Shown here piece by piece: positions 1,175 through 61,691 of a stretch of 64,000 nt of DNA. How positions within the stretch are numbered: the first letter of the stretch is position 1; each line of letters opens with the position of its first letter. This stretch comes from Candidatus Pacearchaeota archaeon (GTDB lineage Archaea > Nanobdellota > Nanobdellia > Pacearchaeales > GW2011-AR1). The notes beneath the pieces were generated by a model that saw only the letters and a program-made list of their open reading frames with translations, made no database searches and was not told the DNA's origin. The stretch lies in contig JBAZOZ010000002.1 of the NCBI GenBank assembly GCA_041648455.1, positions 1,531 to 65,530 on the forward strand, read 5' to 3'. The position numbers and the translations under genes were made by a program.

Positions 1175-1275
1175 TTAAAAATTTCCTATTTTGAAAAGGC
1201 AAAAAACTTCCTGTTTTTCTTACTTTCAAAATTTCCTGCTTTGTAAGTGGTGAAAAACTTCCTGTTTTTCTCATG
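1175..1275 (-). repeat. AGGAA-core AT-rich tandem module array directly upstream of the start codon at 1173 (member of dispersed family)
   Basis: Reverse complement reads ...aaaacaggaagtttttcacc...gcaggaaattttgaaagtaagaaaaacaggaagttttttgcc...aaaataggaaatttttaaaATG. The same unit types are seen upstream of at least 12 other genes. Confidence 0.7.
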
Positions 1276-10331: not shown

Positions 10332-10501
10332 TGCGCGATACGAGAATCGAACTCGTGTCTCAACGTTTTTGCTTTCTCGCGATTTCCGTCGGAGGCAATT
10401 TAAGAAATCGCCTTACAGCGTCGAAAAAGGAAGGTGTGTGAGAGGAAACCATAGGTTTCCTTCATTGGCAACGTTACGTTCTACCACTAAACCAATCGCG
10501 C
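10332..10501 (-). tRNA. tRNA-Gly(GCC) with a 98-nt intron at canonical position 37/38 (intron 10367..10464)
   Basis: Minus-strand read GCGCGAT-TG-GTTT-AGTGGTA-GAAC-G-TAACG-TTGCCA[intron]A-CGTTG-AGAC-ACGAG-TTCGATT-CTCGT-ATCGCGC-A. Acceptor 7/7, anticodon stem 5/5 (one G-U), T-stem perfect. The intron holds an 8-bp hairpin GCGATTTC..GAAATCGC. Confidence 0.6.
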
Positions 10502-18813: not shown

Positions 18814-20586
18814 TTATTCCATTCTATTTCCGCTTAATCTGCTTCCTTGCTGTCCAGGTGTTTGACCGCCGAGTTCCGACGGCAATTGTGAAAAACCTGC
18901 ACCGAAAATATTATAATTTCCTTGAGGCAACATTGTTCCATAACCCGAAAAATATCCTTGTTGAAATCCGGTTGATTGATTCCAATATGGAGCCATTTTC
19001 ATTGAATAAATTGGAGAACCGAAAGCTTCTAGAGATTCCTGAACTGGCGGAGATTTAAAATGCTGCCACCAACTTGCTGCTTCTATAACTTTTTTCGCTT
19101 CAAAACCTTCCTTGCCTAATTTTTCCATCATTTCTTTTATCGGAACATTTCCCATACCCATCGGCAATTCAGTATGTTCAAATCCAAAATTATCAGAAAG
19201 ATGAATATGTTTCAGAAGCGGTTTTATTTTTTCTGTTTCTTCAACAATATCTTTTGATTCGTAACCGTATTTTCTCATCATATTTATATGGCCGACATCC
19301 CAAGTTACTCCGATTAATTTTTCTGCCTGACTTTTTGCTTCGCTTTCCGAAAGACCTTTTTCTCTTCCTATTTTAACAAATTCATCTCTTGCTTTCTCTA
19401 CGATTTCTTTAAGTTCATGTCCCCTTGAAAAAGCTCCGCCAGCAGGAGGATTTTCAATTGCGATTATCGGTGCTGCTTTCCACTTTCCTTCTCTAACTTT
19501 TTCATAAGAATCCCAAGCAACATTCGCAAAAGTCTTTATTGTTTTTTCTTTTGCAAATTCATCGAGGGGTTTATAAATTTCTGGAATTGAAATCCTATTA
19601 TTTAAAGTTTCTAATCCACTTGCAAGAATTTCTTTGGTTAATTCTACTCTTCTCAAACTATCTTGAGGTAATTCATTGATTTTAGTTACCTTAGATTCTA
19701 TTTCTTTTTTAAGTGCATCTAATTTTGGTTTATCTTCGTGTGTTGCATTATTGTATGCTAAATTATAAAGTTCTTTTAATTCCCTGTAAGAATCATTTAA
19801 AAATGCTGTTCCAATATTATAATTTGAAAGAGCTTTTTTTTCTTCTGGCAATAATTCTTTTCCTGCTTCTTTTTCTGCTTTTGCTCCTAATCTAAGATAT
19901 TTTGTTGACTCAATAAATTCTCCTGCCCTTTCAGTATTGTAGGCCAAGTGTGATAGTGAAGAACGCCAAGTTTGTTCATTTTGCTTCTTAATTTCATTTT
20001 TTATTTCTTTGGATTCTTCTCCCGGGAAATTTCTTTCTTTTAAGGAAATTCTATTGATTGAACCTGTTTCTGGATTTATCATCAATCCTTCTTCAACTTC
20101 TCCTCTCTTGGGTTTTATTTGTCCGGGAAGAATTGCAGAAGAATGAAATACAATTGGAGAATTTCCGTCTGGATTTATTTCATGTGCTCTCTCTACGGCA
20201 AATTTCATTTGCCTTTCTGCTGCCTGTCTGCCCGTTTCACTCCACCCTTCTTTTGTAAAACCGGAAGCCTCAATCAGAGGACCGTGAACAGTTACATCGA
20301 CGCCAGTTAGTTTTGAAAGCCTGTTAATTTCTTTCAAATGTTGTTGAGGAATAGATTCAAAAACTTCGGGACTAACTCCTTCCAACTCAATATGTTTTAC
20401 TCCGGTTGATAATTTAGAAGACATTTCTTGAAGCCAGTTCGCATTTCTTGGGTCTGTTGTTAATGCAAATTGTCCTGCGGGGATATGAGTTCCAACGAAA
20501 CCATATCCATAACCTTTTTCAGGGTCGAGAGAAGAATATCCTCCCTGATATAAATCGCTTGTTTTATACTCTTTTTTTTCTACCAC
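18814..20586 (-). CDS. Xylose-isomerase-like TIM-barrel (sugar-phosphate isomerase/epimerase family) protein with large insertion and Q/G/Y-rich low-complexity C-terminal tail
   Basis: IELEGVSPEVFE near the N-terminus and VTWDVGHINMM...HIHLSDN near the C-terminus. Tail YWNQSTGFQQGYFSGYGTMLPQGNYNIFGAGFSQLP. Confidence 0.45.
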   Translation of the reverse strand: MVEKKEYKTSDLYQGGYSSLDPEKGYGYGFVGTHIPAGQFALTTDPRNANWLQEMSSKLSTGVKHIELEGVSPEVFESIPQQHLKEINRLSKLTGVDVTVHGPLIEASGFTKEGWSETGRQAAERQMKFAVERAHEINPDGNSPIVFHSSAILPGQIKPKRGEVEEGLMINPETGSINRISLKERNFPGEESKEIKNEIKKQNEQTWRSSLSHLAYNTERAGEFIESTKYLRLGAKAEKEAGKELLPEEKKALSNYNIGTAFLNDSYRELKELYNLAYNNATHEDKPKLDALKKEIESKVTKINELPQDSLRRVELTKEILASGLETLNNRISIPEIYKPLDEFAKEKTIKTFANVAWDSYEKVREGKWKAAPIIAIENPPAGGAFSRGHELKEIVEKARDEFVKIGREKGLSESEAKSQAEKLIGVTWDVGHINMMRKYGYESKDIVEETEKIKPLLKHIHLSDNFGFEHTELPMGMGNVPIKEMMEKLGKEGFEAKKVIEAASWWQHFKSPPVQESLEAFGSPIYSMKMAPYWNQSTGFQQGYFSGYGTMLPQGNYNIFGAGFSQLPSELGGQTPGQQGSRLSGNRME

Positions 20587-21204: not shown

Positions 21205-21756
21205 TCACAGCCTTGTTTTCTTATATTTCCTTTCTTCTCTTTCAAATGGGAGATTTCTTTCATGCTCAAGAAATTCCGCACCGATAAATCTTGAATTTAT
21301 TGTTTCTTTTTCTGAAAGATTCATTTGTTCCATAGGATTGACAAAATGAGCCTGCCTCATCGTATTTTCCCTCGGAGTTAAGACTGGAGCTTCGATTCTT
21401 GATTCATATCTTTTTTCTAAATTTTCTATTTGCCTTATATTGTAATCGTTTGTATTTCTTATATCATAGTTTCTTATTCCGGTTTCTCTATTTTCTGTTG
21501 CGGGGGTTGTTGGAATTTCTTGTTCAGGAGGAATATTTTGTCTCGGATTTGATTCTAAAATTGGAGTGATTAATTTTCCTGTTGAGTGCATAAATTCCTG
21601 AAATTGCTCTGTTTGAATTTCCTTGGTTTCTTTTACAATTTCTTTTTCAAGATTTTCTTTTTCAGGAATTTCGATTTGAGTTTTTTGAAGTTTAGAAAAT
21701 AATTCATTGAGTTGTTTTTTATTCAGCTTTATCTTTTTATCGCTCTTTTTTTTCAT
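21205..21756 (-). CDS. Hypothetical low-complexity protein (183 aa)
   Basis: ORF track. Confidence 0.35.
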   Translation of the reverse strand: MKKKSDKKIKLNKKQLNELFSKLQKTQIEIPEKENLEKEIVKETKEIQTEQFQEFMHSTGKLITPILESNPRQNIPPEQEIPTTPATENRETGIRNYDIRNTNDYNIRQIENLEKRYESRIEAPVLTPRENTMRQAHFVNPMEQMNLSEKETINSRFIGAEFLEHERNLPFEREERKYKKTRL

Positions 21757-21982: not shown

Positions 21983-22119
21983 TACGTGTAGCTCACCATT
22001 GAAGACAACCTACGGGTTTCTCTCACACACTCTCCCTCTCGTATCGGATGGGCGATTTCTTTCCAATGCCTCCGATAAAAATCGCATCGCCTTCGCTGCA
22101 CTACGTGTAGCTCACCATT
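21983..22119 (+). repeat. Insertion-like element: 18-nt direct repeats (tacgtgtagctcaccatt at 21983..22000 and 22102..22119) flanking a hairpin GCGATTTC...TGCCTCCGA...AAAATCGC (22052..22084)
   Basis: The direct repeat encodes the C-terminus plus stop (MVSYT*) of gene 22101..23513, which is duplicated. The hairpin is the same family as the tRNA-Gly intron hairpin. Confidence 0.6.
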
Positions 22120-23513
22120 CCATGAGATTTCTTGTAAATATCGAATAAATTAAATATTGTATCAGATGCCTTTTTTGCGGCTAATGGACGGACATGCTCT
22201 TTTTCAACCCAGTCGTCAACTTTTACTATTACATCTTTTTTGTTTTCTTTTTTATCTGATTTTTTTCCTTCTTTTTTGTCATAACCACCGATTAAAGCCA
22301 TGAAAGGATTTGAATTATCTTTTGATTTTTCTTTTTCCTTATCTTCTTTTTCTTCCAAAAATTCATTTATTTCTTCCTGCATTTGATCAAGACTTTCTGT
22401 TGTTGTGCCCTCAATTAAAGACAAAACATCTCCTAAATCGGATTTTTCCAATTCATAATTTAATTTTTTTAGTTCATCTTCGTTTAACGCGTAAGCCCGG
22501 AAAGTTATTTCAGATTTTCCTATAAAATTTCCCTGCTGTGGAACTGCTAAAAAAACAAAATCCACCAATACGCAAGAATAATATTTTCTTTTTCCCTTTA
22601 ATGATCTGGACTTGTAAAAATCCTGCGGCAAATCGCCTGCGAGCGCAGCGTCGTCAACTTTCATTTCTGATTTTCCTAGCAAGGTTAATTCAAGAATAGT
22701 TCTGTTAAATGCATTTACTGCGTAAGGATTTCTTCCTTGTTCTTTCATCTCGAGTTTTTGTGCTGCTAATAAATATGGTCTTACCCAACGAGAATAAAGT
22801 TTTACATTATTAACCTGGCTTCTTAAATAAGTTCTTTCAATTTCGTATCTTTTCCTCAATTCTTTTTCAGATTGCGTGAGCCATAAATTAAATTCAAGAA
22901 TTCTCGGTTTCAGAATTCTTTTTACTCTATCATTCAAATCAATTTTATCTACATCTTTCTCATCTTTTACTGCAAGAAATGCGTCTCTTAGCGTCTGGAA
23001 TCCTAATTGCCCGGTTGTCATTGCATGAATGCTACCCTGGCTTCTCTGTAAATCAACTTTGTCAAGCCAGATTTGTTTTAAAGAAAGCTTTGCGGCTTCC
23101 GAAGTATTTTCATTTTTTGATTTCAAATCGTCGTAAACTTGCAGTCTTATTTTAAATTCTTTCAAATCGTAAATTATATTTAAAATGCTTCGTGTTAAAA
23201 CTCCGACGCTCTGCATCATCTTTGAAGCTTCTTCTTGCATTCTCGCCATCTTCATTCCAGATTCTGAAAAGTGCGGGCCTCCAGGCATTGAAGAAAAATT
23301 ATCAATAAGCTTTTCGGTTGATAATCCAAAATCATTCATTAAGTCAATTATAAAATAATAAATCGGCTCGAGGGTTTCTGCGTATGACTCGTAAGATAAG
23401 GAGTGTTCGGACTCGGGCACAGAATCAATTAAACCTTTTTTCTTTTTTTCTATTCTTTTTTTGTAATAAGGAGAAATTTCTTCGATTATGCCGTGAATTG
23501 TTTTTACTTCCAT
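22101..23513 (-). CDS. Hypothetical protein (470 aa)
   Basis: ORF track; no recognisable motif. Confidence 0.45.
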   Translation of the reverse strand: MEVKTIHGIIEEISPYYKKRIEKKKKGLIDSVPESEHSLSYESYAETLEPIYYFIIDLMNDFGLSTEKLIDNFSSMPGGPHFSESGMKMARMQEEASKMMQSVGVLTRSILNIIYDLKEFKIRLQVYDDLKSKNENTSEAAKLSLKQIWLDKVDLQRSQGSIHAMTTGQLGFQTLRDAFLAVKDEKDVDKIDLNDRVKRILKPRILEFNLWLTQSEKELRKRYEIERTYLRSQVNNVKLYSRWVRPYLLAAQKLEMKEQGRNPYAVNAFNRTILELTLLGKSEMKVDDAALAGDLPQDFYKSRSLKGKRKYYSCVLVDFVFLAVPQQGNFIGKSEITFRAYALNEDELKKLNYELEKSDLGDVLSLIEGTTTESLDQMQEEINEFLEEKEDKEKEKSKDNSNPFMALIGGYDKKEGKKSDKKENKKDVIVKVDDWVEKEHVRPLAAKKASDTIFNLFDIYKKSHGMVSYT

Positions 23514-23642: not shown

Positions 23643-24020
23643 TTGTTTAACTTATTCATGGGTTTGTTTGGACTTGGTAAAAAAAGGGTTGTCGATTTGA
23701 CTGAAAATTATAAACAGCAGGAGCGTGCGAAAAAGATTATGGAAAATTCCGCAAAATCAAAACAAACGCCGTCTAAGTACGAAAATTCTATCAGTTCAGA
23801 TGCTTTGGATTTTTTTGCGAATAAAATGTCCACAAATGAAGTTTCTAACGACGATAGTTCTGATTATTCTGACGATTCTGGAGAAGATAAAAAGAAAAAA
23901 CTTGCGAAAAGATTAATGGATATGACAGATAAAATAGAGGATTTGTCAAACCAGATTTATCATCTTCAACAGCGGATTGAAGTTCTTGAACAAAAGCTAA
24001 GAGTCGGACTTAAAAATTAG
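23643..24020 (+). CDS. Hypothetical acidic/coiled-coil protein (125 aa)
   Basis: ORF track. Confidence 0.35.
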   Translation: MFNLFMGLFGLGKKRVVDLTENYKQQERAKKIMENSAKSKQTPSKYENSISSDALDFFANKMSTNEVSNDDSSDYSDDSGEDKKKKLAKRLMDMTDKIEDLSNQIYHLQQRIEVLEQKLRVGLKN

Positions 24021-24452: not shown

Positions 24453-24709
24453 TTGATGAATATGAAAATACAAAAATTTCTAATTTTTGTCCTTCAAAAA
24501 CAAGAAGTTTTAGAAGAAATAGGAAATTTTTTACCTTTTACAGAAATTAGAAATTTCTGTCCTACGGAAAATAGGAAAAACAAAAAAGTTTTTCATCTCT
24601 CCAAATCAAGAAGATTTGAAGATAAGAAATTTTCCGTCCCGTTCAAAACGGGAGATTTTGAAGGTTACAAAACAGGAAGTTTTGAAAGTAAAAATAGGAA
24701 ATTTGAAAA
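24453..24709 (+). repeat. AGGAA-core module array upstream of the GluRS-like gene; the first 80 nt are a conserved block shared with 39489.. and 62373..
   Basis: atgaaaatacaaaaatttctaatttttgtccttcaaaaacaagaagttttagaagaaataggaaattttttacctttta...aacaggaagttttgaaagtaaaaataggaaatttgaaaaATG. Confidence 0.8.
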
Positions 24710-25906
24710 ATGAAAAATCTCGATAAAAAAATTCGTGCTTACGCTTTGAAGAATGCAATTGCTTATGAAGGAAAGGCACGACAGGGTGCGGTTATTTCTG
24801 GATTGTTTGCTGAGGGTTTGAAGAAAGAAGATGTGAAGAAAATTATTAAAGATGTCTCAAAAATTGTTAATGAAGTAAACAAACTTTCTCTGGAAGAACA
24901 GGAAAAAGAATTTGAAAAATTAAAAAAAGAGACTCACGAAAGAGAGCATAGAGAAGGTTTGGAAGAATTGCCGAATGCAAATAAGGGAGTTGTTATGAGA
25001 TTCAGGCCATCTCCTTCCGGACCATTACATATTGGGCACATAATTTCAAATATAGTTAATTCTCTTTACGTTAAAAAATATGGCGGAAAATTTTATGTAA
25101 TTATCGACGATACAAACCCAGAAAATGTTTTGAAGGATTCTTATAAAAAAATCAAGGAAGATTGCGACTGGGTTTTTGGAAATGTCACAAAATATCTTAA
25201 TTCTTCGGATAGAATGGTATTGTATTACAGGTATGCAGAAGATTTAATTAATAAAAAATTTGCTTATGTCTGCACTTGTTCTGCTGAAAGATTTAGAAAG
25301 TTTTCTGAATTTCAAGAAGATTGTCCGTGCAGAAATAATGAACTGAAAGAAAATATTTATAGATGGAAAAAGATGTTTGATGAATATAAAGAAGGCGAAG
25401 CAGTTTTGAGATTTAAAACTCAAGAAGGAATGAAACATCCAAATCCTGCGATGCGAGATTTTCCTCTTGCAAGAATAAATCTGACAGAGCATCCCTTGCA
25501 AAAGAAAAAATATCGAGTTTGGCCGTTGATGAATCTTGCCGTCGCTGTCGATGATATTGAATTGAAGACCACGCATATTATTAGAGGAAAGGACCACAGA
25601 GATAATGCAGAGAGGCAGAAAATGATTTTTGAAGTTTTTGGAAAGAAATATCCGTGGAGTTTTTTTATGGGAAGAATAAAATTTAAAGATTTAGTTTTGT
25701 CAAAGAGAAAGATTACGCAGGCAATCGAATCAGGTGAGTTTTCTGGAGTCGAGGATGAAAGACTTCCAACTATTGCATCTTTAAGAAAAAGAAAATACAA
25801 TATGAAAGTTTTCGAGAGATTTGCAGAACAGAGAGGACTTACAGAAGTGGACAAAGTTGTTGATTCAAAAGAATTTTTCTTGATTTTGGATAGTTTTAAC
25901 AAGTAA
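24710..25906 (+). CDS. gltX: Archaeal/eukaryal-type GluRS-like catalytic domain with N-terminal GatB/YqeY-like helical domain; canonical C-terminal anticodon-binding domain absent (398 aa)
   Basis: RFRPSPSGPLHIGH (HIGH motif) and VLSKRK (KMSKS variant); only about 65 aa follow the KMSKS. The N-terminal 90 aa (IRAYALKNAIAYEGKARQGAVISGLFAEG) are YqeY-like. Confidence 0.7.
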   Translation: MKNLDKKIRAYALKNAIAYEGKARQGAVISGLFAEGLKKEDVKKIIKDVSKIVNEVNKLSLEEQEKEFEKLKKETHEREHREGLEELPNANKGVVMRFRPSPSGPLHIGHIISNIVNSLYVKKYGGKFYVIIDDTNPENVLKDSYKKIKEDCDWVFGNVTKYLNSSDRMVLYYRYAEDLINKKFAYVCTCSAERFRKFSEFQEDCPCRNNELKENIYRWKKMFDEYKEGEAVLRFKTQEGMKHPNPAMRDFPLARINLTEHPLQKKKYRVWPLMNLAVAVDDIELKTTHIIRGKDHRDNAERQKMIFEVFGKKYPWSFFMGRIKFKDLVLSKRKITQAIESGEFSGVEDERLPTIASLRKRKYNMKVFERFAEQRGLTEVDKVVDSKEFFLILDSFNK

Positions 25907-26111
25907 CTAAATGTAAATCCCCAACATAAGATTTTTATACTGGATTTCCTTGCGTAAATATATCGTTTGAGAATTACAATTCAATTTGAATTGAATAAAA
26001 TGAATATTCGGCAAAATCAAAAACACAAGATTTTGCTGGCGCAGAAAACCTTCGGTTTTCTGAGAATTCATTTTTGAAATAAGACGAAAGATGAATTTGA
26101 AAGGAGGTAAG

Positions 26112-26576
26112 ATGATAACTAACAAAAAGGGTTTGTCAACAGTTGTGACAACACTGATACTAATTCTTTTGGTTTTAGTAGCTATAGGAATTGTTTGGGT
26201 TGTTGTTCGTGGATTAATTGGAACTACAGAATCCCAAATTGATATTCAGAAGAAGTGTATTGGAATTGATTTAGAAATAACAAGTGCTAGTTGCATTCAA
26301 GATGTTGGATTAACAACATATACTTGTAGAGCTAAAGTTGGAAAGAGTGGTGGTGAAACACCGAGTGGAATCTTAGCAAGTTTCAGCGATGCTACTCAAA
26401 CTGTAGGGAGTGGGAGAATAACAACAGGGATTAGTTTAACAAATAATATCCAAGCAACTGGAGTGACTGCAAATCCAAACAAAATTACTGTTGCTGCGTA
26501 TTTCACGGATCCAAATGATGCAACTAAGGAATCTTTTTGCTCGCAGACAGTGGATTCAAGAGTTCCGTATCCTTAA
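26112..26576 (+). CDS. Archaeal type IV pilin-like protein (class III signal peptide)
   Basis: MITNKKG|LSTVVTTLILILLVLVAIGIVW with GGAGGT 4 nt upstream of ATG 26112. The track ORF starts 7 codons earlier. Confidence 0.5.
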   Translation: MITNKKGLSTVVTTLILILLVLVAIGIVWVVVRGLIGTTESQIDIQKKCIGIDLEITSASCIQDVGLTTYTCRAKVGKSGGETPSGILASFSDATQTVGSGRITTGISLTNNIQATGVTANPNKITVAAYFTDPNDATKESFCSQTVDSRVPYP

Positions 26577-29022: not shown

Positions 29023-29094
29023 GGCGATTGTAGTTTAACGGTAGAATGTGTGACTGTGGCTCGCAAGACGAGGGTTCGACTCCCTCCTTTCGCC
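29023..29094 (+). tRNA. tRNA-His(GTG) with encoded G-1 and C73
   Basis: g-GCGATTG-TA-GTTT-AACGGTA-GAAT-G-TGTGA-CTGTGGC-TCGCA-AGAC-GAGGG-TTCGACT-CCCTC-CTTTCGC-C. Anticodon and T stems pair; the acceptor has two U-U mismatches (5-68, 6-67). Confidence 0.55.
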
Positions 29095-29305
29095 CTTTCA
29101 GTCGTGAGTCGAATAAAAAAGGAGAAACAAAGATGAAAAAAATAAAATATTCAATTGCAAAATCTGGGCTGTGCCTTTGCACAGACGGAATTAAAGATTT
29201 TGCAAATATAGAAAATACAGAAATCGAAGATTTCTGTCCTTACAAAACAGGAAGTTTTGAAAGTAGGAAATTTTCTATCTCATTAAAATTCAGGAGAATT
29301 TTAAG

Positions 29306-29707
29306 ATGAAAATCTTATTTGTCTGCAAGCACAACAGATTTAGAAGCAAGGTAGCTGAAGCATATTTCAATAAAATAAATAAAAACAAGAATATTAAAGT
29401 AGCAAGTGCCGGAATTTTCAAGGGGTTTCCAACTGAACCCATCGTCGTTAAAATTGGAAAAAGATACGGATTAAATATAAACAAAAATACAAATGGGTTA
29501 AAAGAAGAAGCAGTTAAAAAGATTGATTTATTGATAATTGTAGCGAATGACGTTCCTGCATATTTATTTAAAAGCAAAGTAAAGAATATCCTTGTCTGGA
29601 AAATTCGTGATGCAAATTCCCTCGATAAAAAAGAAATTGAAAAGATTATGAAAAAAATATTTAAGAAGATTGATGAATTAAATAGAAAAATAGGGAAACT
29701 AAAATGA
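29306..29707 (+). CDS. Low-molecular-weight protein tyrosine phosphatase / ArsC-like
   Basis: ILFVCKHNRFRS (CX5R P-loop) at the N-terminus. Confidence 0.75.
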   Translation: MKILFVCKHNRFRSKVAEAYFNKINKNKNIKVASAGIFKGFPTEPIVVKIGKRYGLNINKNTNGLKEEAVKKIDLLIIVANDVPAYLFKSKVKNILVWKIRDANSLDKKEIEKIMKKIFKKIDELNRKIGKLK

Positions 29708-30840
29708 CAAACACCGATGCTGTTAAAGGATTCAAAGATTATACTGGAGAAGAAGCAATTAAGAGAGAAGAAATCAGAAAAATATTAGTTGGAACTTTTG
29801 AAAATTATGGATTTGAGCCTGCCGAAACTCCGATAATCGAATATGAAGAATTTGTCAAAGGTGATAATAAACACGACGAGGCTGTTTCAGATATTTTCAG
29901 ATTAGAAGATAAGGGAAAAAGAAAGCTCGCACTAAGATATGAATTTACATTTCAATTAAAAAGAATTATGCAAAATAAAAAACTCCCATACAAGAGATAT
30001 CAAATCGGTCCGGTGTTTAGAGATGAGCCAATATCTGCCAATAGGTTTAGACAATTTATTGCGTGTGATGCAGATATTATTGGGAGCGATATAAAAGATG
30101 AAGCAGAAATTTTAGCAATTATAAAGACTATTTTAGAAAAATTAGGAATTAATTTTATTATTTATTTTAATAATAGAAAATTATTGAACGAAATCCTTGA
30201 TAAATATAAAGTTAAAGAAAATAACAAAGACGATGTTATTCGAGAATTGGACAAATTGGATAAGATTTCTGAGGAAGAAGTAAAAAAGGGATTAAAAAAG
30301 TATAATGCAGAGAAAATTATTGATATTTTAAAAAATAAGGAAAGCTTTTTTGAAAAATTCTCTAACTATAAAGAAGTTGAAGAGCTTAAAAGATATTGTA
30401 AATATTATGGTGTAGAAGTTAAATTTTTACCGATGCTGGCGAGAGGTTTGAGCTATTATAACGGGAATGTTTTTGAAGTTAAATCGAGTATAAAAGAAAC
30501 AATCTGTGGTGGTGGGAGTTTTATGTTCAATGGAGTTCAAGCAACAGGATTCGGAACCGGTTTGGAGAGACTGGAAATCTTATCGAATTTAAAAAATGAA
30601 AAAGAAAGATTCTTGATTGTCTCTCTTGGAAAAGATAAAAAAGCAATTGAATTAGCGGAAAAATTTAGAGAAAAAAATAAAATAATTTCAATTTATTACG
30701 GCAAACCATCGAAAGCGCTGGATTATGCAAATGCTTATAATTTTAATAAAGTAATCTTCGTCGGAGAAAAGGAAGTAAAATCCAAGAAATTCAAGATTAA
30801 GGATATGAAAACTGGAAAAGAAAGTTTGTTGAATATTTAG
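29704..30840 (+). CDS. hisS: Histidyl-tRNA synthetase
   Basis: Class II motifs (GFKDY..EE, FE.YGFEPAETPIIE, RYEFTF) and GLERL. Confidence 0.85.
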   Translation: MTNTDAVKGFKDYTGEEAIKREEIRKILVGTFENYGFEPAETPIIEYEEFVKGDNKHDEAVSDIFRLEDKGKRKLALRYEFTFQLKRIMQNKKLPYKRYQIGPVFRDEPISANRFRQFIACDADIIGSDIKDEAEILAIIKTILEKLGINFIIYFNNRKLLNEILDKYKVKENNKDDVIRELDKLDKISEEEVKKGLKKYNAEKIIDILKNKESFFEKFSNYKEVEELKRYCKYYGVEVKFLPMLARGLSYYNGNVFEVKSSIKETICGGGSFMFNGVQATGFGTGLERLEILSNLKNEKERFLIVSLGKDKKAIELAEKFREKNKIISIYYGKPSKALDYANAYNFNKVIFVGEKEVKSKKFKIKDMKTGKESLLNI

Positions 30841-41110: not shown

Positions 41111-41330
41111 GGGGCTGTGCTTTCGCACAGACTGAGTTTAATATTTTGTTATTACAGAAAATATGAAAAATAAAAAGTTTTTCATCCTGTTCACATGGAA
41201 AACAAAGAAGTTTTCCATTCCTCAAAATCAGAAAGATTTTAAGGAAACAGGAAGTTTTGAAGGTAAAAAAATTTTCTGTCCCTTAAATTTCAAGGGGATA
41301 ATATGAAATTAAAGGTGAAAGGAGGGTGAA
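41111..41330 (+). repeat. Hairpin GGGGCTGTGCTTTCGCACAGAC followed by AGGAA-core module array upstream of 41331
   Basis: Same hairpin-plus-array architecture as 29166..29305. Confidence 0.7.
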
Positions 41331-56914: not shown

Positions 56915-57121
56915 AAACAAAATAGTTTTCTATCCCTAAAAATTGAGAAAGTCTTAAGGAAACAGGAAATTTTTAAGATGAAAAAAATAACAAATTTTTT
57001 ACCTTTTCAAATCAGGAAAAATTTAAGATGCGGAAAACAGGAATTTTCCGTCTCGTTAAAAACAGGAAATTTTTAAGATGAAAAAAATAACAAATTTTTT
57101 ACCTTTTCAAATCAGGAAAAT
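56915..57121 (+). repeat. AGGAA-core module array containing a 101-nt direct duplication (56957..57017 and 57058..57118), upstream of 57122
   Basis: aaacaggaaatttttaagatgaaaaaaataacaaattttttaccttttcaaatcaggaaaa occurs twice. Confidence 0.8.
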
Positions 57122-57574
57122 TTGAAAATGAACAAAAAAATAACGATTATAATATTAGTAATTTTATTAACTGTGTTTGTTGGAGCATATTTAATAAAAC
57201 AAAAAGATCCAAGAATCCCCATTACTATTTATAAAACCCAAAGTTGCGGATGTTGCGAAGGTTTTATATCTGAATTAACTAAAGGTGGATTTGATGTTAA
57301 AATGAATGTTGAGGATAATATAGATATAAAAGGAAAATATAACATTCCAGAAGAAATGCGAAGTTGTCATACTTCTTTTGTTAAGGGTTATTTTGTAGAA
57401 GGACATGTTCCTCTTGAAGCTATAAATAAATTAATTGAAGAATCTCCTGAAATTGATGGGATTGCATTACCTGGAATGCCTTCTGGTTCTTTGGGAATGC
57501 CAGGAATAAAAGATGGACGACTTAAAATATATTCTATCACCAATGGAACAGCTTCTATTTTTATGGAAATATGA
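57122..57574 (+). CDS. CopG/DUF411-like metal-binding protein (membrane anchored)
   Basis: N-terminal TM; CGCCEGF and CH motifs. Confidence 0.55.
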   Translation: MKMNKKITIIILVILLTVFVGAYLIKQKDPRIPITIYKTQSCGCCEGFISELTKGGFDVKMNVEDNIDIKGKYNIPEEMRSCHTSFVKGYFVEGHVPLEAINKLIEESPEIDGIALPGMPSGSLGMPGIKDGRLKIYSITNGTASIFMEI

Positions 57575-57712
57575 AAGAATTTCCTACTTTCAACATGGAA
57601 AATAAGAGATTTTCCATGCCATTCAAAACAAAAAGTTTTGAAGGAAACAGGAAGTTTTCAAAATGTGAAAAACTTCCTATTTTTCACCTTTTAAATTCAG
57701 GAAGAATTCAAA

Positions 57713-60354: not shown

Positions 60355-60614
60355 TTACACCAAACCTTTTATAATAACTATTGATTAAGTTGATTAATGA
60401 AAAGAAGGTATTCGTTCCCCTCAAATGAGACAAAGATTAATGAGAGACAAAGTAATTCAGAATATTGAACGAAAATTAAATTTATCGTAAATAAACAAAG
60501 AAGGAGAAAGTTAAATGAAAAAAATAGAAATTTTTTACCTCTCAAACTTAGGAAAAGTTCAAGATACAGAAAATAGGAAATTTTCTGTCTCATTAAGAAT
60601 AGGAAATTTTTAAG

Positions 60615-61691
60615 ATGAAGATAAAGAATATATTAAAAGATGAAAAAATATTGACAATTATAATTGCTGTTTTGGTTGTTTTATTTGCAATTTTATTATC
60701 GTTTCCAAACATGACTAGTCCTATAAAAGATATTATGAGTAAAGAAAAAATTTATTCTGTTGATATTATTAAAATTAATGGGTGTGATGATTGTTTTGAT
60801 TTAAATAGGGTATTAACTGTTGTGAAAAAAGATAATAGCATAGAGATAAAAGAAATTAAAGACTTAGATTACAAAAGCAAAGAAGCAGAATCATTAATAA
60901 AAGAATATGGAATAAAAACAACCCCTGCCCTAATAGTAAAATCAAGGGGAATAGAAAAAAGAGAATTCAACAAAGAAATATTTTCCTCAGGTAAAAATTA
61001 TCTTCTTTTCGATAAGTCAGTTCCATATTTAGATTTGTCTTCTGGAGAAATTAAAGGAAAGGTTGATTTTAAAGAGATTCAGGATAGTTCGTGTAAAGAA
61101 TGCCCAAGTTTATCCTCGCTAGAAAAACAATTAGAAGCCCTTGGTATTAAAAAGAAAAATTATGAAATAATTGATTCATCACAAGAAGAAGGAAAGAAGT
61201 TAATAAAAGATAATAACATTAGATTTTACAATAATTTAATTATAGGAAAAGAAATTAAGGCATATTGGTGGATATTTCCAAGTTTGAGTAAGGCATTGAC
61301 AGAAGAGAAGGATTATTATGTATTTTCAGAGCCGATTGTGTATCCTTATAAAGATGCAATTACGGGTATGATTAAAGGAAAAGTAGAAGTAATTTATGTT
61401 ACAGCAAATGACTGTAATGATTGTTCTAATGTTTCAGTTTTAAAAGAAGATTTTGAAAAATCCGGCGTTTATATTGCTAAAGATAAATATATTGATTACT
61501 CGTCGGGAGAAGGGAAACAGATAACTTCTAATTATAATATAAATGCTGTGCCAACAATTATACTTTCAAAAGAGATATTAGATTATCCCAGATTATCAGA
61601 AACCTTGAAAGAATTAGGGACTTTTGAAAAAGACGATTCTTTTGTTTTTAGAGAATTAAAAAAATTAAATCTAAAATATAAAGAAATATGA
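60615..61691 (+). CDS. Membrane-anchored protein with two thioredoxin-fold CxxC domains (extracytoplasmic thiol-disulfide oxidoreductase)
   Basis: N-terminal TM; INGCDDC...TTPALIV and VTANDCNDC...NAVPTIIL. Confidence 0.55.
   Translation: MKIKNILKDEKILTIIIAVLVVLFAILLSFPNMTSPIKDIMSKEKIYSVDIIKINGCDDCFDLNRVLTVVKKDNSIEIKEIKDLDYKSKEAESLIKEYGIKTTPALIVKSRGIEKREFNKEIFSSGKNYLLFDKSVPYLDLSSGEIKGKVDFKEIQDSSCKECPSLSSLEKQLEALGIKKKNYEIIDSSQEEGKKLIKDNNIRFYNNLIIGKEIKAYWWIFPSLSKALTEEKDYYVFSEPIVYPYKDAITGMIKGKVEVIYVTANDCNDCSNVSVLKEDFEKSGVYIAKDKYIDYSSGEGKQITSNYNINAVPTIILSKEILDYPRLSETLKELGTFEKDDSFVFRELKKLNLKYKEI

Follow-up and report, generated by a model that had tools for sequence, protein, structure and literature searches.

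The glutamyl- and glutaminyl-tRNA synthetases (GluRS and GlnRS) that have been studied rely heavily on the anticodon of their tRNAs, and they need the tRNA even for amino acid activation. YadB (GluQRS), a paralogue that acts on the queuosine of tRNA-Asp in organisms that also have a full GluRS, offers a natural GluRS-family core without an anticodon-binding domain. The archaeal architecture is represented by the non-discriminating GluRS of Methanothermobacter thermautotrophicus (structure 3AII), in which a disordered YQEY domain (residues 1-85) is followed by a Rossmann fold (86-170 and 288-331), a CP domain (171-287), a stem-contact fold (354-399), and a proximal (400-408 and 500-552) and a distal (409-499) beta-barrel (PMC2978374). 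Here we describe a gene that departs from this plan: a 398-amino-acid (398-aa) protein encoded at 24710-25906 on the forward strand of a 64,000-nucleotide stretch of Candidatus Pacearchaeota archaeon DNA (assembly GCA_041648455.1, contig JBAZOZ010000002.1), referred to below as the window. Of the features that mark the GluRS family and that it shares with 3AII-type enzymes, the protein has the N-terminal YQEY domain, the class-I Rossmann/CP core with HIGH and KMSKS-like motifs, the zinc cysteines of the CP domain, and the stem-contact fold; however, it is without both C-terminal beta-barrels (3AII residues 400-552) and falls below the curated equivalog cut-offs (TIGR00463 and PRK04156).

Two other systems bear on how such a protein could work. 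According to the title of Dubois et al. 2009 (Biochemistry 48:6012; cited in PMC4393105), an engineered, C-terminally truncated Escherichia coli GluRS stays specific for tRNA-Glu, which provides a proof of principle for specificity without an anticodon-binding region. That enzyme, however, is a laboratory construct of bacterial type, in which the anticodon-binding domain is alpha-helical, and by the same title the free distal domain, supplied in trans, stimulates it; the window protein occurs naturally throughout its clade, and no free domain was detected for it in the scope searched below. In the GlnRS–YqeY fusion of Deinococcus radiodurans, YqeY raises tRNA affinity, and does so only in cis (PMC1865053), although the YqeY domain there is C-terminal and sits on an enzyme whose beta-barrels are retained. 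No description of a barrel-less, truncated, or split archaeal GluRS was found in the literature searched, which included a preprint from 2026 that covers 208 complete Nanobdellota genomes.

We think it rather probable that the 398-aa protein is the working GluRS of this organism, that it is blind to the anticodon, and that both barrels were lost stepwise. The broader proposition, that an entire order-level Pacearchaeota-type lineage has a GluRS without an anticodon-binding domain as its only GluRS, appears to us evenly poised. By sequence, the protein is a descendant of archaeal non-discriminating GluRS. Its best solved-structure match is 3AII (E=4e-85, phmmer), with residues 7-389 colinear with residues 7-389 of the chain; because of this alignment and the published domain map (PMC2978374), the protein can be seen to end where the stem-contact fold gives way to the barrels. 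The terminal helix (residues 386-397) sits where the proximal beta-barrel would start. A Pfam scan returns PF00749 (class-I Glu/Gln catalytic domain) alone, at residues 94-383 (E=3.6e-56), without a match to the barrel domains PF03950 and PF20974, and a profile of the beta-barrel region gives −0.5 bits against the protein, that is, no barrel signal. The curated models stop at the same place: PRK04156 matches over the first ~397 of its 567 positions (414.7, below the cut-off of 516), and TIGR00463 over the first ~389 of 560 (338.8, below 401.75). Because the scores fall under these equivalog cut-offs, the identical database protein (P0001), present in NCBI, JGI, and ENA, the last as an independent assembly, carries the NCBI name 'glutamate--tRNA ligase family protein [Candidatus Pacearchaeota archaeon]'. 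AlphaFold2 predicts the whole fold with high confidence, and the model is ordered throughout (pLDDT 95.7, pTM 0.81), with the YqeY domain modelled as four helices (pLDDT about 90-97); its core superposes on 3AII with a root-mean-square deviation of 1.7 Å over 313 aligned columns, and the superposition runs through residue 398.

Much of this had been anticipated by an initial annotation made from the window alone. The open reading frame (ORF), its archaeal class-I core, and the motifs RFRPSPSGPLHIGH (residues 97-110) and LSKRK are confirmed by the ORF list and PF00749, and the end that was placed about 65 aa after KMSKS lies 64 aa beyond the KMSKS-like loop. The absence of the anticodon-binding barrels was also correctly called, as judged by Pfam, the NCBIfam models, the barrel profile, and the alignment to 3AII, but the missing part amounts to some 155-170 aa and not to about 250. 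The N-terminal YqeY-like domain is likewise present, yet it does not stand 'instead' of the barrels: it is canonical in archaeal GluRS (3AII 1-85), and a novel N-terminal fusion can be rejected, since the domain is colinear with the N-terminal domain of 3AII (PMC2978374).

The short form is widely shared. The 120 best clusters (of more than 120) all contain proteins of 360-435 aa, at 67-89% identity, with PF00749 as the sole domain, and in all 120 of these close relatives the C-terminus lies 0-10 residues past the motif '...FF.ILD.FNK'. Open frames of 403-418 codons encode the same form, which measures 397-418 aa overall, in 13 species-representative genomes. Position-wise conservation, computed over 119 family members, reaches 97-100% at R97, H107, G109, 'DDT', the zinc cysteines, 'THIIRGKDH', and 'LSKRK'. 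Within the HIGH signature, H107 and G109 are 100% conserved and H110 84%; in the KMSKS-like loop, S331, K332, and R333 are 100% conserved and K334 99%. The zinc cysteines C188, C190, C205, and C207 stand at 98-100%, and the first three are invariant in a seven-sequence alignment that also includes full-length forms. At least 95% conservation is found at 153 of the 398 positions, and the mean family conservation of the YqeY domain (0.74) approaches that of the catalytic core (0.81). Taken at the level of sequence, the short form is under purifying selection, with the YqeY domain constrained nearly as tightly as the core.

Relatives that retain part of the C-terminal region suggest how the barrels were lost. 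In neighbor-joining distance trees, the short forms make up one clade with two sub-clades, and two tail-bearing forms nest inside it: a 468-aa form (P0121, with seven members of identical length) and a 472-aa form (L024-A, from a related metagenome-assembled genome). Both of these, together with the 474-aa P0138, keep the last ~55 positions of a barrel profile built from the C-domains of 106 full-length relatives, following a short strand-like linker. These last positions correspond to the proximal barrel; therefore, all three have lost the distal barrel, which lies as an insertion in the proximal one. Because the tail-bearing forms nest in the short clade, the distal barrel would have been deleted internally before the final truncation. 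P0138 combines this distal-barrel deletion with a core of the B-type (a 'DDT-IGS' insertion and HIGN), a subfamily whose full-length members measure 563-567 aa. A further common feature is the YqeY signature 'LF.EGL.-K..(V/I/M)K', with a one-residue deletion, which occurs in all short and tail-bearing forms (as 'LFAEGLK-KEDVK' in the window protein), in P0138, and in a subset of the B-type proteins (P0133, P0134, L011, and L024-B). These observations indicate a stepwise reduction in cis, from full length, through loss of the distal barrel, to loss of all barrels, and such a series speaks against an intact anticodon-binding module having been split off to another locus.

Gene order points in the same direction. 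The window and the locus of a 468-aa form (L007) share the order NTP_transf_2, AP_endonuc_2-like, two unknown genes, the position of a small coiled-coil ORF, and GluRS. The same order as in the window is found at L011, where the GluRS is of the B-type, with both barrels encoded, and is broken by a deletion and a frameshift; the flanking proteins there resemble those of the window as much as the flanking proteins of other short-form genomes do. The comparison indicates that the window gene occupies the canonical gltX position. The nearest full-length relatives (P0315, P0317, and P0133) lie in unrelated gene contexts, which are uninformative on co-occurrence.

If the 398-aa protein is the working GluRS, it would activate glutamate and charge tRNA-Glu, and it would probably also charge tRNA-Gln, as other archaea do, for transamidation of the GatDE type (PMC3655853). 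Its specificity would come from acceptor-stem and D-arm/inner-elbow contacts alone, the cis-linked YqeY domain may, by analogy, act as a tRNA-affinity module, and the anticodon would no longer be an identity element. No tRNA-Glu or tRNA-Gln gene was found in the window or in the fetched loci. Several considerations weigh against this proposal. The anticodon is a major identity element in the characterised GluRS and GlnRS, and anticodon-independent specificity is for that reason an extrapolation. The neighbor-joining trees are simple distance trees, with possible long-branch effects. The search for barrels and for a second GluRS covered 64 kb of a genome of ~0.7 Mb, along with ±10 kb flanks elsewhere, and the searches for free C-domains were limited by word indexing, so that their negative outcome is only moderately strong. 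Finally, a member of the short-form family can have a second GluRS-like gene beside it in the same genome, as the case of L024 shows.

This last case underlies the explanation that survives best among the alternatives, although we regard it as unlikely: a full-length B-type GluRS-like protein encoded outside the window could act as a paralogue or as part of a hetero-complex, either active and sharing the work (for example, tRNA-Glu versus tRNA-Gln) or dead and supplying its barrels in trans. A paralogue with altered tRNA recognition had also been among the options of the initial annotation. At L024 (CAZLFJ010000022.1, 3384-6540), a species-representative contig, the 472-aa A-type gene, whose product has lost the distal barrel and has intact catalytic motifs, is followed 40 nt downstream by a 565-aa paralogue, L024-B. 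The paralogue keeps the YqeY domain, the zinc cysteines, the stem-contact fold, and both barrels, while every catalytic signature has been lost: HIGH has become 'IRLNN', 'EDTNP' has become 'EDLIGNET', 'THIIRGKDH' has become 'NKVFEYSEN', and 'LSKRK' has become 'LEYTKQ'. Its barrels are as conserved relative to active B-type proteins as those are among themselves, whereas its core is relaxed, and its frame stays open over 565 codons at 28.7% GC, with 19-71 stops in the other frames. Because the barrels are conserved and the open frame is long, L024-B looks like a retained pseudo-enzyme and not like debris; its role may be that of a pseudo-synthetase or of a tRNA-binding subunit working in trans. 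Full-length B-type genes also occur in closely related organisms (L011), a point in favour of a paralogue model. Against such a model, L024-B is a singleton in a collection of 15 billion proteins, a metagenome scan with it returned no close relative, and as a query it picks out just the A-type gene in the window and nothing further of GluRS type at the other short-form loci. The other B-type proteins sampled look catalytically intact and have no A-type neighbour. Together, these results fit one functional GluRS per genome and not an obligate pair. In L024, the only genome in which two copies were seen, we read the short-type copy as the catalytic enzyme.

A split gene, in which the barrel module would be encoded as a separate ORF elsewhere and reassemble non-covalently with the 398-aa piece, was raised in the initial annotation and is in our judgement very improbable. 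Forms that lack just the distal barrel nest in the short clade, so the anticodon-reading distal barrel went first, and no candidate module was detected in the sequence covered. The barrel profile, run against all six frames of the window, gave a best E of 0.05, which is spurious, and no barrel ORF; Pfam scans of the 30 other window ORFs returned no GluRS-related domain; and with the same profile the ±10 kb flanks of GluRS gave no match in 16 related loci, including L001-L003 and those of the 13 species genomes. In a database of 5.8 billion proteins, searches for free-standing C-domains gave 22 short matches with a single-sequence query and 29 with a profile query, none of them tied to the clade of the window protein. 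Three of these matches, on longer contigs, are adjoining pieces of sporadically broken genes in other lineages; an apparent link between P0344 and P0106, both on contigs of 6,879 bp, was rejected as coincidence. The stimulation of the engineered E. coli enzyme by its free distal domain, as given in the title of Dubois et al. 2009, would be compatible with reassembly, and two-ORF GluRS genes do exist, on metagenome contigs of several DPANN and other archaea. In a Woesearchaeota-type locus (L005, 676-2327), GluRS is encoded as pieces of 395 and 149 aa separated by a 14-nt spacer, with the break at the same boundary at which the window protein ends, and further cases (L009:429-2144, L010:1177-2917, and L011:7605-9268) are broken at or near the boundary between stem-contact fold and barrel. 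In these cases, however, the C piece always adjoins the N piece, and the genes are scattered singletons in the tree, with full-length nearest relatives; the L005 pieces share a 90% cluster with an unbroken protein of 554 aa that occurs on 19 contigs. We accordingly rejected the idea that other short GluRS forms represent an old split family. Such broken DPANN genes share with the window gene the position of the break, but they are recent one-offs with the barrel ORF adjacent, whereas the window form is ancient and conserved and has no barrel ORF nearby.

Two observations on broken genes may be recorded alongside. L010 lies on a contig of 2x coverage, and its break may be a sequencing error. 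P0275 consists of an HNH endonuclease domain (PF13392) fused to the barrel domain of a GluRS, a hint that insertion of a mobile endonuclease can break a GluRS gene at the boundary between stem-contact fold and barrel.

Comparably improbable is a non-canonical function like that of GluQRS/YadB, in which the protein would glutamylate a modified base or another acceptor. The comparison with YadB, also drawn in the initial annotation, rests on the shared catalytic core of GluRS type from which an anticodon-binding domain is missing, and beyond this it holds as an analogy only. The window protein nests in archaeal GluRS, which provide its best matches, and scores 87 bits against the GluQRS family TIGR03838, where the cut-off is 276.7 (about 87 bits against cut-offs of 256-277 for the GluQRS models). 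It retains the archaeal stem-contact fold and a 90-aa YqeY extension, both lacking in the bacterial-type YadB, and its gene occupies the position of the barrel-encoding GluRS in L011. To our knowledge, queuosine, the target of YadB, is not an archaeal modification. A truncated pseudogene, which the initial annotation allowed, or an assembly artefact might be suggested by the shortness of the gene and its scores under the NCBIfam equivalog cut-offs, but is refuted by an identical protein in an independent ENA assembly, a length and stop position (with a common stop motif) shared by 13 species genomes and over 120 clusters (397-435 aa, about 70% identity), catalytic motifs and residues that are 97-100% conserved, and a predicted fold that is confident and complete.

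Should the broader proposition hold, namely that the lineage has a barrel-less enzyme as its only GluRS, the identity of tRNA-Glu (and of tRNA-Gln) would rest on acceptor/D-arm features alone, with YqeY serving as a tRNA clamp. The enzyme would then be a 'minimalist' synthetase that uses an acceptor-stem ('operational') code, both natural and clade-wide, and would show how far the translation apparatus can shrink in reduced genomes. The preserved intermediates would constitute a ready series for dissecting the contribution of each barrel, and the dead paralogue in L024 may prove to bind tRNA as a subunit acting in trans, in which case a class-I synthetase would be heteromeric. There may also be a practical consequence: as the short form scores under the GluRS cut-offs, it could make GluRS seem missing or doubtful in a genome and skew marker-based estimates of completeness.

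Table 1. Features of the barrel-less GluRS gene and its leader (positions in the window)
Feature	Position	Strand	Details and basis
AT-/purine-rich 5' leader/intergenic region with AGGAA[A/G]TTT copies	24453..24709	+	26-nt core at 24665-24690
Start-site motif AGGAAATTTGAAAAATG, with Shine-Dalgarno-like GGA 11 nt 5' of ATG	24696..24712	+	Pattern matches
A-type barrel-less glutamyl-tRNA synthetase gene	24710..25906	+	398 aa, positions include the stop codon; ORF list, PF00749, 3AII alignment
N-terminal YQEY/YqeY-like helical domain and linker, residues 1-90	24710..24979	+	Aligned to 3AII 7-~95
Rossmann-fold catalytic domain with CP insertion, residues 91-335	24980..25714	+	PF00749, 3AII superposition
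HIGH signature H107-I-G-H110	25028..25039	+	Read from sequence
CP-domain Zn-binding cysteine cluster C188, C190, C205, C207	25271..25330	+	Family conservation
KMSKS-equivalent loop 'LSKRK', residues 330-334	25697..25711	+	Aligned with full-length GluRS 'LSKTK' or 'ISKSK'
Helical stem-contact-fold region, residues 336-398	25715..25903	+	3AII domain map, model secondary structure

The start of the gene had been described as lying directly after a long AGGAA array. An AGGAA motif does adjoin the start, but the array is weak, with three copies of AGGAA[A/G]TTT in 190 nt (TRF scores of 54-70), and the motif is found window-wide, with 35 matches against 14 expected. A start pattern, AGGAANTTTNNNNNATG (AGGAA.TTT-N5-ATG), matches eight times in the window against 0.2 expected, and it ends on several start codons, those at 24710, 18180 (reverse strand), 39633, and 60615; the start-site motif is consistent with a Shine-Dalgarno-like signal. 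The leader and start motif being dispersed genome-wide, a regulatory array specific to this gene was rejected. The 26-nt leader core, 'TACAAAACAGGAAGTTTTGAAAGTAA', recurs 5' of several window genes and is absent from the corresponding loci of related genomes. Dispersed sites of the leader element lie at 1179-1263 (reverse strand), 24453-24712, 29240-29273, 41245-41269, 56964-57080, 57649-57678, and 60575-60617, and at ~56964-57130 the element forms tandem modules of ~100 nt, each ending in ATG. An 86-aa ORF at 24453-24713 on the forward strand, whose last 4 nt overlap the GluRS start, was annotated as a gene in the ENA assembly (L003, 9747-10004); it is made up mainly of copies of the leader motif and is probably not a genuine gene.

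Upstream of GluRS lies a syntenic block whose conserved proteins have no clear function. It contains, on the reverse strand, a 590-aa ORF (18814-20586) with a partial AP_endonuc_2/TIM-barrel match only, a 183-aa ORF (21205-21756) whose counterparts in relatives are positional only, and a 470-aa ORF (22101-23513) with no Pfam domain; a 125-aa coiled-coil ORF (23643-24020) on the forward strand lies directly 5' of GluRS. The 590-, 470-, and 125-aa proteins have homologues across short-form genomes and at L011, the 125-aa protein being undetected at L007. Just 3' of GluRS, a 161-aa ORF (26091-26576, forward strand) has no Pfam match and begins with an N-terminus, 'KKGLSTVVTTLILILLVLVAIG', that resembles a class-III (type IV pilin/archaellin-like) signal peptide. 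It is kept at 31-40% identity 3' of the short GluRS in most related genomes, and its counterpart is absent beside the 468-aa and B-type forms.

The surroundings also include tRNA and synthetase genes. At 10332-10501 on the reverse strand of the window, Rfam finds a tRNA (50 bits) that ARAGORN missed; it reads as tRNA-Gly(GCC) with an intron of ~101 nt after the anticodon loop. A tRNA-His(GTG) gene (29024-29095) lies a few hundred bases 5' of a short histidyl-tRNA synthetase (HisRS) gene (29704-30840; 378 aa, weak HGTP_anticodon match). In most of the relatives sampled, a tRNA-His gene is located 1-5 kb 3' of GluRS (L001, L014-L016, L018-L020, L023, and L028 among the loci), and HisRS is also present in most related loci with flanks long enough to include it, forming a conserved tRNA/synthetase neighbourhood.

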